From NCBI RefSeq assembly GCF_048403405.1, contig NZ_CP183129.1: a DNA stretch of 64,000 nucleotides; one strand, written 5' to 3'. Each line of letters starts with the position of its first letter. Position 1 is the stretch's first letter. A program made the translations under genes and the position numbers. The stretch comes from Escherichia coli (lineage in GTDB: Bacteria > Pseudomonadota > Gammaproteobacteria > Enterobacterales > Enterobacteriaceae). A model generated the notes under the pieces. That model ran no database searches. It saw nothing but the letters and a program-made list of their open reading frames with translations, and was not told the DNA's origin. This document shows positions 1,928 to 27,492 of this stretch, piece after piece.

Positions 1928-4304
<2,377 letters not shown>

Positions 4305-4309
4305 TGTAA

Positions 4310-4375
4310 ATGCCGGATGAAGCGTTTATGCCGCATCCGGTAGTCCTGAATCGTGCGGGGGCAACCCCGCACACA
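4310..4375. repeat. REP-type palindromic element plus adjacent GC hairpin in glpK-glpX spacer
   Basis: GCCGGATG...CGCATCCGG palindrome followed by CGTGCGGGGGCAACCCCGCACAC stem-loop. Confidence 0.6.
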
Positions 4376-4438: not shown

Positions 4439-5449
4439 ATGAGACGAGAACTTGCCATCGAATTTTCCCGCGTCACCGAATCTGCGGCGCTGGCTGGCTA
4501 CAAATGGTTAGGACGCGGCGATAAAAACACCGCGGACGGCGCAGCGGTAAACGCCATGCGTATTATGCTCAACCAGGTCAACATTGACGGCACCATCGTT
4601 ATTGGTGAAGGTGAAATCGACGAAGCACCGATGCTCTACATTGGTGAAAAAGTCGGTACTGGTCGCGGCGACGCGGTAGATATTGCTGTTGATCCGATTG
4701 AAGGCACGCGCATGACGGCGATGGGCCAGGCTAACGCGCTGGCGGTGCTGGCAGTAGGCGATAAAGGCTGTTTCCTCAACGCGCCAGATATGTATATGGA
4801 GAAGCTGATCGTCGGACCGGGAGCCAAAGGCACCATTGATCTGAACCTGCCGCTGGCGGATAACCTGCGCAATGTAGCGGCGGCGCTCGGCAAACCGTTG
4901 AGCGAACTGACGGTAACGATTCTGGCTAAACCACGCCACGATGCCGTTATCGCTGAAATGCAGCAACTCGGCGTACGCGTATTTGCTATTCCGGATGGCG
5001 ACGTTGCGGCCTCAATTCTCACCTGTATGCCAGACAGCGAAGTTGACGTGCTGTACGGTATTGGTGGCGCGCCGGAAGGCGTGGTTTCTGCGGCGGTGAT
5101 CCGCGCATTAGATGGTGACATGAACGGTCGTCTGCTGGCGCGTCATGACGTCAAAGGCGACAACGAAGAGAATCGTCGCATTGGCGAGCAGGAGCTGGCA
5201 CGCTGCAAAGCAATGGGCATCGAAGCCGGTAAAGTATTACGTCTGGGCGATATGGCACGCAGCGATAACGTCATCTTTTCTGCCACCGGTATTACCAAAG
5301 GCGATCTGCTGGAAGGCATTAGCCGCAAAGGCAATATCGCGACTACCGAAACGCTGCTGATCCGCGGCAAGTCACGCACCATTCGCCGCATTCAGTCCAT
5401 CCACTATCTGGATCGCAAAGACCCGGAAATGCAGGTGCACATTCTCTGA
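4439..5449 (+). CDS. glpX: Class II fructose-1,6-bisphosphatase GlpX (336 aa)
   Basis: Translation from MRRELAIEFSRVTESAALAGYKW matches GlpX; length and synteny. Confidence 0.95.
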   Translation: MRRELAIEFSRVTESAALAGYKWLGRGDKNTADGAAVNAMRIMLNQVNIDGTIVIGEGEIDEAPMLYIGEKVGTGRGDAVDIAVDPIEGTRMTAMGQANALAVLAVGDKGCFLNAPDMYMEKLIVGPGAKGTIDLNLPLADNLRNVAAALGKPLSELTVTILAKPRHDAVIAEMQQLGVRVFAIPDGDVAASILTCMPDSEVDVLYGIGGAPEGVVSAAVIRALDGDMNGRLLARHDVKGDNEENRRIGEQELARCKAMGIEAGKVLRLGDMARSDNVIFSATGITKGDLLEGISRKGNIATTETLLIRGKSRTIRRIQSIHYLDRKDPEMQVHIL

Positions 5450-10194: not shown

Positions 10195-11184
10195 TCAGCG
10201 TTTGCTGATCTGATCGAACGTACCGCCGTTAGCAAAATGCTCTTTTTGCGCTTTCGTCCAGCCGCCGAACTCTTCATCAATGGTGAATAACTTCAATTTT
10301 GGAAACGCATTTTCGTACTTTTTCGCTACCTCAGCGTCGCGCGGACGGTAGTAGTTTTTCGCGGCAATTTCCTGACCTTCTGGCGAGTAGAGATATTTCA
10401 GATAGGCTTCCGCCACCTCTTTGGTGCCTTTTTTCTCGACCACTTTATCGACCACCGACACGGTTGGCTCTGCGAGGATAGACTCACTCGGCGTAACGAT
10501 TTCGAATTTATCTTTCCCCAGTTCATTCGCTGCCAGCAGAGCTTCGTTTTCCCAGGCGATCAGTACATCGCCAATTCCGCGCTCGACAAAAGTGTTAGTG
10601 GAGCCGCGCGCGCCAGAATCCAGAACTTCGACGTTTTTATACAGTGCCCGAACAAAATCCTGTGCTTTTGCCTGATCGTTGTTGTTGTGATGCAGCGCGT
10701 AGCCCCAGGCTGCCAGGTAGTTCCAGCGCGCGCCACCAGAGCTTTTCGGATTAGGCGTGATCACCGAAACACCCGGTTTAATCAGATCGTTCCAGTCATG
10801 GATCTGCTTCGGATTGCCCTTACGCACCAGGAAAACAATGGTGGAAGTGTACGGTGCGGAGTTATCCGGCAGACGTTTGATCCACTCTTTATCAATCCGC
10901 CCGCGTTCCGCAATCGCGTCCACGTCATAGGCCAGAGCCAGAGTGACAACATCAGCTTCAATACCATTGATTACCGACGTCGCTTGTTTGCCTGAACCAC
11001 CGTGTGACTGACGAATCACCACGTTATCGCCAGTTTGCTGTTTCCAGTGGGCGCTGAATGCCTTGTTGTACTGTTCGTACAATTCGCGCGTTGGATCATA
11101 TGAAACGTTAAGAAGCTGAATATCCTTTGCCATAACGCTGGTTGCCGCCAGCAAAAATGTTAACCCTACGCCCCACTTGTTCAT
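10195..11184 (-). CDS. sbp: Periplasmic sulfate-binding protein Sbp (329 aa)
   Basis: Signal peptide plus sulfate/thiosulfate-binding protein family translation. Confidence 0.95.
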
Positions 11185-11295
11185 CGCCCGACTCTCTTAT
11201 GTTGTGTTGTGATGAGCAAAGCGTGCCAGAAGGTTAACCAAACATTAAAGAATAAAAAAAGATTGGCTATAACTTGCGGGTATATGTTGAGGGAT

Positions 11296-11322
11296 TAAAA
11301 AGGCGGAAGAAATCCGCCTCAT
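11296..11322 (-). terminator. Hairpin with T-run distal to the pfkA REP cluster
   Basis: GGCGGAAGAAATCCGCC stem; on minus strand followed by TTTTT. Confidence 0.5.
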
Positions 11323-11346: not shown

Positions 11347-11448
11347 GATGCCGGATGCGGCGCGAACGCCTTATCAGGCCTACAAAAGTTTGCAAATTCA
11401 ATAAATTGCAGAATTCACGTAGGCCTGATAAGCGAAGCGCATCAGGCA
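11347..11448. repeat. BIME: two inverted REP elements downstream of pfkA
   Basis: GATGCCGGATGCGGCGCGAACGCCTTATCAGGCCTAC and inverted GTAGGCCTGATAAGCGAAGCGCATCAGGC. Confidence 0.85.
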
Positions 11449-11503: not shown

Positions 11504-12466
11504 TTAATACAGTTTTTTCGCGCAGTCCAGCCAGTCGCCTTTGAACGGACGCTTCATGTTTTCGATAGCGTCGATGATGTCGTGGTGAACCAGCTGTTCG
11601 TTCTGGATACCTACGCAACGACCGCCGTAACCTGCCAGCAGCAGATCGATAGCGTAAGCGCCCATACGGGAAGCCAGAATACGGTCGTAAGGCACCGGAG
11701 AACCACCGCGCTGGATGTGGCCCAGCACAGTTGCGCGGGTTTCACGACCGGTTTCTTTCTCGATGAAATGCGCCAGTTCGTCAACATCACACATATGTTC
11801 GGTAATCGCCACGATCGCGTGTTTTTTACCTTTCGCGATACCCGCTTTGATTTCGTTTACCAGGTCTTCACGGCTGAATTCAACTTCCGGAACTACAACG
11901 AATTCACAGCCACCGGCAATGGCCGCAGCCAGGGTCAGATCGCCACAATAACGACCCATCACTTCCACCACGGAAATACGCTGGTGAGAAGAAGAGGTAT
12001 CACGCAGACGGTCGATCGCTTCTACAACGGTGCTCAGCGCAGTGAAGAAACCGATAGTGTAGTCAGTGCCTTTGATGTCGTTGTCGATAGTGCCAGGCAG
12101 ACCGATGCACGGGAAGCCCATTTCGGTCAGACGCATTGCACCCATGTAGGAACCGTCACCGCCGATAACCACCAGCGCGTCGATACCACGTTTTTTCAGG
12201 TTTTCGATAGCCACGGCGCGGATGTTCTCGTCGCGGAATTCCGGGAAACGCGCAGAACCGAGGAACGTACCACCACGGTTGATCATGTCAGACACGCTGT
12301 AACGGTCTAGCTGTACCATACGGTCTTCATACAGACCCAGATAGCCGTCATAAATGCCCATTACTTCCAGACCTTCTGTCAGCGCAGAACGAACAACCCC
12401 GCGAATTGCGGCGTTCATGCCTGGCGCATCACCGCCGCTTGTCAACACACCGATTTTCTTAATCAT
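11504..12466 (-). CDS. pfkA: 6-phosphofructokinase I (320 aa)
   Basis: Translation from [29 protein letters not shown] is canonical PfkA. Confidence 0.98.
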
Positions 12467-13630: not shown

Positions 13631-13657
13631 AAAAAAAACCCCCACATCATGTGGGGG
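13631..13657 (-). terminator. Rho-independent terminator downstream of cpxP
   Basis: CCCCCACATCATGTGGGGG stem with 8-nt T-run on minus strand. Confidence 0.75.
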
Positions 13658-16439: not shown

Positions 16440-16620
16440 CGGGGTGAAGACAACAGGTCAGCACTGTGCGAACTGATACCCTCACCCCGGCCCTCTCCCT
16501 GAAAGGGCGAGGGGGAAAAACGTAGCCCTGTTCAGCAACGGAGCTGAGCACCGCTCCGGACAGTCCCCTCGCCCCTCTGGGGAGAGGGTTAGGGTGAGGG
16601 GAAAAATTCAGCACAATGCA
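16440..16620. repeat. GC-rich compound imperfect palindrome between cpxA and yiiM
   Basis: CCCTCACCCCGGCCCTCTCCC...GGGCGAGGGGG mirrored by CCCCTCGCCCCTC...GGGAGAGGGTTAGGGTGAGGGG about 80 bp away. Confidence 0.6.
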
Positions 16621-18618: not shown

Positions 18619-18654
18619 TATCGGATCATTGTTTTTATTTTGAAATTGATCACA

Positions 18655-19366
18655 AATAAATATCCTCCGGCATAGCCGGAGGTTTTTCAAATGCGCCTAT
18701 AAGGCTCTCTTACCAGCCGCGCCCTAACAGGCGCACACGATCTGACATTTGCATCCAACTTCGTTACTTACGGCCCGTAAACGGGCTGCCCGGATAGGGA
18801 ATCGATAACTGCTCTCCCATTTTATCCTCTTCAAGCTGGTGCTTTATGTAATCCTGTATCTTCGCCGTGTTCTTACCCACCGTATCGACGTAGTACCCTC
18901 TGCACCAGAACTCCCTGTTCCTGTATTTGAATTTCAAATCACCAAACTGCTCGTAAAGCATCAGACTGCTTTTCCCTTTCAGATATCCCATAAAGCCGGA
19001 TACGCTCATTTTGGGCGGGATCTCCACAAGCATATGGATATGATCTGCACAGCATTCAGCTTCCAGAATCCGTACACTTTTCCACTCACACAGCTTTCTC
19101 AAAATACTGCCTATTGCTCTACGCTTCTCTCTGTAGAACACCTGTCTTCGGTATTTTGGCGCAAAAACTATGTGATATTTACAGTTCCATCGGGTGTGCG
19201 CTAAGCTCTTTTCGTTCCCCATTGGGACCCCCTTTTGATTTCTTGTTTGACACTTGCAGTTGCCAGACCGCAAGGTGTTTTAACAAATCAAAAGGGGTTT
19301 TAATAACTGGCTTAAAGCTGAAAGCTTTCCGGAACCCCCAGCCTAGCTGGGGGTTTTCTGTGCACA
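18655..19366 (-). mobile_element. IS200 insertion sequence (about 0.71 kb, IS200/IS605 family); ends approximate (about +/-15 bp)
   Basis: Contains 152-aa Y1 (HUH) transposase ORF, left-end palindrome AACCCCCAGCCTAGCTGGGGGTT (19333-19355) and a right-end stem-loop CTCCGGC-ata-GCCGGAG (about 18663-18690). Confidence 0.8.
18764..19222 (-). CDS. tnpA: IS200 transposase TnpA (Y1/HUH type, 152 aa)
   Basis: Translation MGNEKSLAHTRWNCKYHIVFAPKYRRQVFY...HIHMLVEIPPK...YIKHQ; HxH motif and catalytic Tyr region; SD AAGGGGG upstream of ATG. Confidence 0.92.
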   Translation of the reverse strand: MGNEKSLAHTRWNCKYHIVFAPKYRRQVFYREKRRAIGSILRKLCEWKSVRILEAECCADHIHMLVEIPPKMSVSGFMGYLKGKSSLMLYEQFGDLKFKYRNREFWCRGYYVDTVGKNTAKIQDYIKHQLEEDKMGEQLSIPYPGSPFTGRK

Positions 19367-19394: not shown

Positions 19395-19451
19395 TTCATT
19401 TTTTAAGCTGATATGCGGCGTAAACGCCTCATTGCAGCAGGCGGCAAATGA

Positions 19452-23146: not shown

Positions 23147-26159
<3,013 letters not shown>

Positions 26160-26164
26160 ACACT

Positions 26165-26290
26165 GCCTGATGCGGCGCAAGCGCCTTATCCGGCCTACGG
26201 GTCGGCAATAGTTGTAGGCCTGATAAGACGCGACAGCGTCGCATCAGGCATTGATTGCCGGATGCGGCACGAGTGCCTTATCCGGCCTAC
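26165..26290. repeat. BIME: three REP elements between rhaA and rhaD
   Basis: GCCTGATGCGGCGCAAGCGCCTTATCCGGCCTAC, inverted GTAGGCCTGATAAGACGCGACAGCGTCGCATCAGGC, and GCCGGATGCGGCACGAGTGCCTTATCCGGCCTAC. Confidence 0.9.
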
Positions 26291-26343
26291 AGATCGTATA
26301 TCCGGCAACAGGCACGGACGTCCAATTAACAGGAACACAGAAC

Positions 26344-27168
26344 ATGCAAAACATTACCCAGTCCTGGTTTGTCCAGGGAATGATCAAAGCCACCACCGAC
26401 GCCTGGCTGAAAGGCTGGGACGAGCGCAATGGTGGTAACCTGACGCTGCGCCTGGATGACGCCGATATCGCGCCTTATCACGGCAACTTTCATGCACAAC
26501 CGCGCTATATCCCGCTCAGCCAGCCCATGCCTTTACTGGCAAATACACCGTTTATTGTCACCGGCTCCGGCAAATTCTTCCGCAACGTCCAGCTTGATCC
26601 TGCGGCTAACTTAGGCGTCGTAAAAGTCGACAGCGACGGCGCGGGCTACCACATTCTCTGGGGGCTAACTCACGAAGCCGTTCCAACCTCTGAACTTCCG
26701 GCGCACTTCCTCTCTCATTGCGAACGCATTAAAGCCACCAACGGTAAAGATCGGGTGATCATGCACTGCCATGCCACCAACCTGATCGCCCTTACCTACG
26801 TACTGGAAAACGACACCGCGGTCTTCACTCGCCAACTGTGGGAAGGCAGCACCGAATGTCTGGTAGTGTTCCCGGATGGCGTCGGCATTTTGCCGTGGAT
26901 GGTGCCCGGCACCGACGAAATCGGCCAGGCGACCGCACAGGAAATGCAAAAACATTCGCTGGTGTTGTGGCCCTTCCACGGCGTCTTCGGCAGCGGTCCG
27001 ACACTGGATGAAACATTCGGTTTAATCGACACCGCAGAAAAATCAGCACAAGTATTAGTGAAGGCTTATTCGATGGGCGGCATGAAACAGACCATCAGCC
27101 GTGAAGAGCTGATAGCGCTCGGCCAGCGTTTCGGCGTTACACCACTCGCCAGTGCGCTGGCGCTGTAA
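26344..27168 (+). CDS. rhaD: Rhamnulose-1-phosphate aldolase RhaD (274 aa)
   Basis: Class II aldolase translation from [32 protein letters not shown]. Confidence 0.96.
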
Positions 27169-27177
27169 GGAGCAAAC

Positions 27178-27492
27178 ATGATCCGCAAAGCCTTTGTCAT
27201 GCAGGTTAACCCCGACGCCCACGAAGAGTATCAGCGTCGGCATAATCCAATCTGGCCGGAACTGGAAGCAGTGTTGAAATCTCACGGTGCGCATAACTAC
27301 GCCATTTACCTCGACAAAGCGCGTAATCTGCTATTTGCCACAGTAGAGATTGAATCTGAAGAACGGTGGAATGCGGTAGCCAGTACTGATGTTTGCCAAC
27401 GTTGGTGGAAATATATGACCGACGTTATGCCAGCTAACCCGGATAACAGCCCAGTCAGTAGCGAGCTGCAAGACGTGTTTTACCTGCCTTAA
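27178..27492 (+). CDS. rhaM: L-rhamnose mutarotase RhaM (104 aa)
   Basis: Translation [46 protein letters not shown]... matches RhaM/YiiL. Confidence 0.95.

Follow-up and report, generated by a model that had tools for sequence, protein, structure and literature searches.

A cluster of three canonical E. coli REP units, in the order Y, inverted Z2, and Y, was read at 26165–26290 of the window, the whole 64-kb stretch of DNA analyzed here. The cluster occupied most of the 184-nt spacer between rhaA and rhaD in the rhaBADM operon, and by its sequence it is a BIME-2-type REP cluster. The element is already catalogued: its K-12 counterpart is REP299a-i of EcoCyc, which has nine units. The cluster at 26165–26290 is probably a local three-unit allele of REP299 that would act as a transcribed hairpin barrier in rhaBADM and tune expression.

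The window corresponded to the E. coli chromosome from menA to typA/bipA, reversed relative to the K-12 orientation. Its nearest relative, GN02461 (NZ_CP095533.1), was almost identical to it except for one IS200 position. REP units were searched with a covariance model. Ten distinct REPs lying between rhaA and rhaD in other E. coli strains were aligned (alignment A1), with the window copies left out, and the model R1 was built from A1 and the hairpin structure. The whole window was scanned with R1 on both strands, unfiltered. The RefSeq annotation of K-12 carries no REP features; therefore, K-12 was compared by R1 scan.

The genes rhaB (23434–24903), rhaA (24900–26159), rhaD (26344–27168), and rhaM (27178–27492) were all co-directional on the plus strand. 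The translation of rhaA ended in LSQRG at the stop codon TAA (26157–26159), and the first REP stem began 5 nt 3' of it. Unit 1 (26165–26198, plus strand) was a Y-type REP of 34 nt, GCCTGATGCGGCGCAAGCGCCTTATCCGGCCTAC, scored by R1 at 52.6 bits (E = 7e-10). A T at position 4 makes it a variant with one additional stem mismatch, and its hairpin energy was −15.1 kcal/mol. Unit 2 (26214–26249, minus strand) was an inverted Z2-type REP of 36 nt, GCCTGATGCGACGCTGTCGCGTCTTATCAGGCCTAC on its own strand, with 48.4 bits (E = 6e-9) and a hairpin of −20.5 kcal/mol (z = −6.0). Its sequence showed no differences from the Z2 units of K-12 and other strains. Unit 3 (26257–26290, plus strand) was again a Y-type REP of 34 nt, GCCGGATGCGGCACGAGTGCCTTATCCGGCCTAC, with 62.1 bits (E = 5e-12) and a hairpin of −20.0 kcal/mol (z = −4.8). 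Units 1 and 2 were separated by a 15-nt linker (26199–26213) between their CTAC/GTAG ends, a spacing common to all strains, and units 2 and 3 by 7 nt (26250–26256) between their head ends. The remaining stretch, 26291–26346, comprised a 53-nt unstructured leader, mostly open in the fold, with the rhaD ribosome-binding site CAGGAAC, and then the rhaD start codon ATG (26344–26346). The rhaD translation started with MQNITQSW.

Three types of E. coli unit have been published, y, z1, and z2, with lengths of 35, 29, and 37 nt when one flanking base is included, and they form y-z1 or y-z2 mosaics (PMC8266576). The unit lengths of 34, 36, and 34 nt found here correspond to the y and z2 types. The layout Y(+), 15 nt, Z2(−), 7 nt, Y(+), with alternating opposite orientation and short linkers, was that of a BIME-2. 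The variable number of tandem Y+Z2 found among 12 strains, with a period of 92 bp, was also that of a BIME-2. Since the linkers are short, Z2 stands in place of Z1, and there is no IHF-like site, the rhaA-rhaD cluster is BIME-2-like and not BIME-1.

The R1 scan gave exactly six strong matches in the 64-kb window, with E from 5e-12 to 1e-5: three in rhaA-rhaD, two in pfkA/sbp, and one in ompL/yihN. Two borderline matches (E about 0.006) were found on the minus strand, at 4313–4340 in glpK/glpX and at 59645–59669 in ompL/yihN. No further R1 sites were found in the window at E < 0.05, except opposite-strand echoes of the same palindromes. The six strong units were recovered both by a regular expression for the REP palindrome (about 29–37 nt, head GCC(G/T)GATGCG, internal mismatch) and by R1 at E ≤ 1e-5. 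This search with the REP consensus, which a sequence-only reading of the DNA had proposed, upheld its view that the palindromes are REPs. The predicted hairpin folds showed the expected internal mismatch, and single units had energies of −15 to −21 kcal/mol. Of the tetranucleotide pair GTAG/CTAC, the CTAC form was found within the CCTAC that terminated all six strong units. The REP head 13-mer occurred 25 times in the window with at most two mismatches, compared with 7.6 ± 2.9 times in shuffles, and none of the 100 shuffles reached 25. All eight units, strong and borderline, were extragenic, lying between annotated coding sequences and 3' of a stop codon. Copies were dispersed over four independent loci in 64 kb, with more in the K-12 counterpart region, and in a single E. 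coli genome the rhaA-rhaD query matched at 4 places in the median and at 16 at most.

REP palindromes had been listed in the sequence-only reading at four operon junctions, after glpK, pfkA, rhaA, and ompL. The R1 scan showed that these sites were real and the list complete, except that the glpK site held only a degenerate relative of the REP. The comparison with K-12 positions also agreed: the rhaA-rhaD, pfkA/sbp, ompL/yihN, and glpK/glpX loci were all occupied there, and by R1 the K-12 counterpart region shared the pfkA/sbp pair, the ompL/yihN REP with its truncated unit, and the weak glpK/glpX element. The term operon junctions was imprecise. The spacers glpK-glpX (in glpFKX) and rhaA-rhaD are within operons; the pfkA REPs lie in the 3' UTR of pfkA, upstream of its own intrinsic terminator and before sbp, and the ompL REP is flanked by ompL and yihN, which are convergent.

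The genes sbp (10195–11184) and pfkA (11504–12466) were both on the minus strand. The spacer contained a Y-type REP at 11350–11383 (plus strand; R1 49.6 bits, E = 3.5e-9), a 35-nt linker at 11384–11418, and a Z1-type REP of 29 nt at 11419–11447 (minus strand, sense of the pfkA mRNA; R1 34.2 bits, E = 1e-5). The length of the latter equals that of z1 (PMC8266576), and it began 56 nt past the pfkA stop codon (11504–11506). The linker carried an IHF-consensus-like site, ATTCAATAAATTG, at 11396–11408, with one mismatch to WATCAANNNNTTR. With a 34-nt Y, a 35-nt linker holding a predicted IHF site, and a 29-nt Z1, the pfkA/sbp element at 11350–11447 appeared from its sequence to match exactly the BIME-1/RIP layout of Y, long IHF-site linker, and Z1. 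An Rfam ES036 match at 11385–11426 merely spanned the linker of this BIME. Downstream of the BIME, an intrinsic-terminator-like hairpin of pfkA followed by a T-run, GAGGCGGATTTCTTCCGCCTTTTTAAT on the minus strand, was read by eye at 11295–11320.

The ompL gene (58893–59585, plus strand) was followed by a canonical Y-type REP at 59595–59628 (plus strand), 9 nt past its stop codon (59583–59585), with an R1 score of 54.4 bits (E = 3e-10) and a hairpin of −21.3 kcal/mol. The second unit of this spacer, 59645–59669 (minus strand; R1 21.7 bits, E = 0.006), was an internally deleted REP 6 nt past the stop codon of yihN (59676–59678), whose gene occupied 59676–60941 on the minus strand. It retained the stem base and a CCAAC tail (altered CTAC) and had lost the stem tip, and the same form was found in K-12. 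Between glpK (2796–4304) and glpX (4439–5449), both on the plus strand, a degenerate REP-like palindrome was found at 4312–4341 (minus strand; R1 21.9 bits, E = 0.006), 7–8 nt past the glpK stop codon (4302–4304). Its CCGGAT...ATCCGG stem was kept, the loop had diverged, and the CTAC tail was lost; the hairpin energy was −17.2 kcal/mol. The K-12 orthologue was weaker, with an R1 score of 18.5 bits. A GC-rich hairpin in the same spacer, GTGCGGGGGCAACCCCGCAC at 4353–4372 (plus strand, −18.4 kcal/mol), had no T-run after it. It had been counted within the glpK site, and it was rejected as a REP with an R1 score below 0. Separately, a REP-like remnant, GATATGCGGCGTAAACGCCTCATTGC, was observed just 3' of sodA at 19411–19436, where the REP model gave 14.8 bits (E = 0.23).

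A consensus scan of 25900–26600 returned no promoter-like and no terminator-like sites. A T-run was absent 3' of every rhaA-rhaD unit, and the combination of GC hairpin and U-run that marks an intrinsic (Rho-independent) terminator was not found there. Since the genes have no promoter or terminator signal between them, the REP cluster should be transcribed within the operon mRNA. The earlier placement of a BIME inside rhaBAD(M) was thus correct: rhaA ends at 26159, rhaD starts at 26344, and no such signal separates them.

The RNA of a 216-nt stretch covering the spacer had a predicted folding energy of −95.7 kcal/mol, compared with −66.2 ± 4.6 kcal/mol in shuffles (z = −6.5). In the predicted fold, units 1 and 2 formed one long stem starting 5 nt past the stop codon, and unit 3 formed a separate hairpin; the rhaD ribosome-binding region was left open. 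Stem pairing was kept between strains by compensatory changes from G:C to A:U, such as GGCGC/GCGCC to GGCAC/GTGCC. Paired cells amounted to 97.7%, compared with 27–44% when the 3' partners were slid by 1–3 columns. The Rfam family naRNA4 (RF02564), with a gathering threshold of 59.5 bits, matched at 26217–26287; the minus strand scored 74.4 bits and the plus strand, which has the sense of the operon, 53.9 bits. This match was read as confirming the unit types, not as evidence for a separate RNA gene. The naRNA4 gene reading was set aside, the match being generic to any Y+Z2 pair and above the threshold only on the antisense strand.

The rhaA-rhaD spacer was compared among 12 E. coli strains. 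The strains carried 1, 3, 5, 7, or 9 units, and the period of the array was 92 bp (Y + Z2). One unit was found in EFF60, FDAARGOS_1283, and EC71, the last with an inserted BoxC-like element in addition. Three units were found in the window strain, B, and O157:H7 FRIK2069; five in LWY24 and ST131 S65EC; seven in APEC37 and 200164; and nine in K-12 and AREA_504. In all 12 strains, the number was odd, both end units were Y, and the first unit lay 5 nt past the rhaA TAA, so that every strain kept at least one REP. The span lengths in 60 evenly stepped genomes matched the same allele classes; by these lengths, calibrated on the 12 spacers, the three-unit class would make up about one fifth of the 60-genome sample. 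Between strains, the cluster expands and contracts in 92-bp steps of Y+Z2, probably by recombination or slippage between direct repeats.

The window allele and REP299 of K-12 share the orthologous locus, the Y/Z2 unit sequences, the distance of 5 nt between the rhaA stop codon and the first unit, and the 92-bp period. They differ in size, REP299 having nine units in a 450-nt spacer and the window allele three units in a spacer of 184 nt. Unit 1 of the window has a G-to-T change at position 4, unlike K-12 REP299, and the window has 10–11 additional nt between the last unit and rhaD relative to K-12 and B. REP299a-i in K-12 has been noted as lying within the operon rhaBAD, and its DNA showed elevated exonuclease protection under stress (bioRxiv 10.1101/2024.07.17.603846). 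Beyond the mention of REP299 in that preprint, no literature specific to the function of the rhaBAD REPs was found, and neither the RepRanger supplements nor those accompanying the 2026 REP preprint contained anything specific to rhaA-rhaD.

To compare species, species-representative genomes were searched in a single pattern scan with the conserved N-terminus of rhaD. This gave 120 loci, and rhaA was directly upstream in 114. Genera were assigned to families by their usual classification. Outside Enterobacteriaceae, the rhaA-rhaD spacer was 4–25 nt (median 10) without repeats in 32 species, which belonged to Pectobacterium, Dickeya, Brenneria, Samsonia, Serratia, Hafnia, Budvicia, Gilliamella, and several Pasteurellaceae. 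In the 82 Enterobacteriaceae, the spacer was 15–466 nt (median 108) and usually strongly structured, and its occupant depended on the lineage. Salmonella and Citrobacter had E. coli-type REP pairs; Pseudescherichia, Pluralibacter, and Silvania had GTAGGCCGGGTAAGCGCAGCGCCACCCGGCA-type units; and Enterobacter, Lelliottia, and Pseudocitrobacter had BoxC-like CCCTCTCCC...GGGAGAGGG elements. A few Enterobacteriaceae had short unstructured spacers of 15–50 nt with a folding energy near 0. The tight spacers outside Enterobacteriaceae suggest that a tight rhaA-rhaD junction is ancestral and that the gap is a landing pad for small palindromic repeats in one family. The repeat-free junctions of the 32 species, together with the short unstructured spacers in Enterobacteriaceae, indicate that the operon can do without the repeat.

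The spacer of Superficieibacter electus, at 466 nt, began its repeats with a single REP of the E. coli type, after which came about nine REP-like units. These units all had the same orientation and recurred roughly every 52 nt; such a direct tandem arrangement is unusual for a BIME.

The cluster could also be a neutral passenger, that is, selfish or hitch-hiking repeat DNA in a permissive gap, with a drifting copy number and no meaningful effect on rha. This explanation is possible, though doubtful. The copy number of 1 to 9 among E. coli strains agrees with it, and this ninefold variation argues against tight selection for any particular dose. The gap in Enterobacteriaceae is filled by unrelated families (E. 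coli-type REPs, GTAGGCCGGGTAAGCG-type REPs, and BoxC-like elements), it is short and unstructured in some members, and the junction is free of repeats in the 32 species of neighbouring families. REP effects are also reported to be variable. However, none of the 12 E. coli strains lacks a REP at the constant 5-nt offset from the stop codon, and the hairpin pairing is kept by compensatory changes. In addition, the measured effects of REP325 and the genome-wide bias toward upstream genes, both described below, make it unlikely that a transcribed set of hairpins of −96 kcal/mol has no effect within an mRNA.

It is improbable that the cluster acts chiefly as DNA, whether as a BIME-2 site of DNA-gyrase binding and cleavage or as a nucleoid-organising site, including an HU-binding RNA like naRNA4. 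Alternating Y and Z2 units are the architecture of a BIME-2, and gyrase cleavage of such elements in vivo was reported (Espeli & Boccard 1997, as referenced in PMC8266576). The protection of REP299 DNA in stressed K-12 and the naRNA4 match above the gathering score also point in this direction, but the match that exceeds the threshold is antisense to the operon, the sense strand stays below it, and the naRNA4 model describes a generic Y+Z2 pair. It is still less probable that a terminator or internal promoter in the spacer separates rhaBA and rhaDM into distinct transcription units. Stable GC-rich hairpins do lie between rhaA and rhaD, but none has a T-run, and the scan of the junction found neither terminator-like nor promoter-like sites. 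Moralejo et al. (1993) reportedly observed promoter activity only upstream of rhaB, which also counts against this explanation.

The reading as a transcribed hairpin barrier can be compared with known intra-operon REP arrays. The intercistronic REP hairpins of malE-malF are said to be the classical example of hairpins that stabilise the upstream mRNA against 3'-5' exonucleases (Newbury et al. 1987, cited in PMC12306157). The malE-malF REPs resemble the rhaA-rhaD cluster in lying within a sugar-utilisation operon, and they differ in the number and arrangement of units. REP325 (yjdM-yjdN), the source of naRNA4, is likewise an intra-operon array of alternating Y/Z2 hairpins; it differs in having 12 hairpins, compared with three units in the window allele, and in its locus and flanking genes. 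In yjdMN, REP325 stabilised the upstream mRNA and acted as a partial terminator dependent on Rho, and for fragments of 2–4 hairpins Rho dependence was undetectable (bioRxiv 10.64898/2026.03.23.713779). According to the same preprint, tandem gene pairs with a REP have a higher ratio of upstream to downstream expression, and REP effects are variable and context-dependent, as is the balance among them.

The hairpins at rhaA-rhaD would block 3'-to-5' exonucleases, and the rhaB-rhaA segment of the mRNA would then outlive the rhaD-rhaM segment. The differential mRNA stability suggested in the sequence-only reading is a reasonable proposal for this locus; such a role is the classical one for REP arrays inside operons, and it has recently been tested again (bioRxiv 10.64898/2026.03.23.713779). 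Partly Rho-dependent attenuation before rhaD may be added, probably weak with three units and stronger in the alleles of seven to nine units. Because the REP325 fragments of 2–4 hairpins had no detectable Rho dependence, the allele of three units may for the most part be a barrier to decay. The third possible effect is on translation. According to the summary of Liang et al. (2015) in PMC12306157, ribosomes stall at REPs that lie no more than 15 nt from a stop codon, and the upstream gene is translated less. Since the first stem lies only 5 nt past the rhaA UAA, it might hinder the terminating ribosome and lower RhaA by stalling and trans-translation. The same rule of proximity to the stop codon would also cover glpK (7–8 nt), ompL (9 nt), and yihN (6 nt), and not pfkA (56 nt). 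Taken together, the three-unit allele would be mainly a decay barrier favouring rhaBA over rhaDM, with a small attenuation and some damping of RhaA. The stem mismatch of unit 1 speaks against a functional reading, its hairpin having −15.1 kcal/mol compared with about −20 kcal/mol.

A further-reaching reading is that the rhaA-rhaD junction is a recurrently colonised and selectively retained uncoupling site, at which 1–9 REP units form a heritable, strain-specific rheostat of RhaD/RhaM relative to RhaB/RhaA. This reading is rather unlikely. It is drawn from the ancestral tight joining (4–25 nt in Pectobacteriaceae, Serratia, Hafnia, Pasteurellaceae, and Gilliamella) and the repeated filling of the gap by different structured repeats in Enterobacteriaceae. 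The comparative picture fits the general view of BIMEs as a source of intergenic polymorphism and is not new in kind. The element is a textbook REP/BIME with a catalogued K-12 counterpart, and beyond correct annotation it is of little import. Its alleles nevertheless form a natural series of 1, 3, 5, 7, and 9 hairpins at an identical position in an inducible operon. This series could be used to measure the dose of REP units against mRNA stabilisation, Rho-dependent attenuation, and stop-proximal translational damping.

The units may also be substrates of the REP-associated transposase TnpA_REP. TnpA_REP (RAYT) is a REP-processing enzyme related to the IS200/IS605 transposases (PMC8266576), and its gene was absent from the window. 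The sequence-only reading had further described REPs as preferred targets of IS200/IS605-family elements, a claim that found no support. An IS200 copy was found at about 18650–19366 in the kdgT/sodA spacer (tnpA 18764–19222, minus strand, Pfam Y1_Tnp), adjoining the sodA terminator hairpin. In GN02461, the same element was located in the cpxP/fieF spacer (at about window position 13637), adjoining the cpxP/CpxQ terminator. Neither the copy of the window nor that of GN02461 was inside any of the eight REP units. The survey of Tobes & Pareja (PMC1525189) is also contrary to the claim: the insertion sequences that target REPs belong to the IS3, IS110, IS4, IS256, and IS5 families, and only 1 of 25 IS200 copies, in Salmonella LT2, was in a REP. 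The link between IS200/IS605 and REPs is the kinship of TnpA_REP, not a target preference (PMC8266576). An Rfam STnc490 match at 19232–19355 fell within the IS200 copy of the window.

Other features were observed in the window. Two BIMEs of K-12, in yiiM/cpxA and yiiF/fdhE, were missing from the window strain. The K-12 yiiF/fdhE spacer (L135, 24021–24118) has a Y+Z1 REP pair and yiiF, both absent at about 41458–41671 of the window, which is another case of strain-variable BIME content. In the convergent spacer of cpxA and yiiM, at 16472–16603, the window strain has a composite palindrome, rich in GC and about 130 bp long (CCCTCACCCC..CCCTCTCCC..GGGAGAGGG..GGGTGAGGGG), where K-12 has a REP pair (L136, 5007–5090). 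We take this palindrome to be BoxC-like; its family was also found in the rhaA-rhaD spacer of EC71 and of many species in the genera Enterobacter, Lelliottia, and Pseudocitrobacter. Between fabY and yiiE, a transposase gene and a truncated hypothetical gene were located at 42586–44400 by the annotation of GN02461 (L005, 19601–21415), and both are missing from the K-12 map of the region. A carbohydrate porin gene of 464 aa was found at 27533–28927 (minus strand) between rhaM and frvA, which are adjacent in K-12, where the gene is absent. An Rfam SECIS_3 match (84 bits) was located at 36516–36574 (plus strand) inside the gene for the formate dehydrogenase-O alpha subunit, as expected for its selenocysteine codon.
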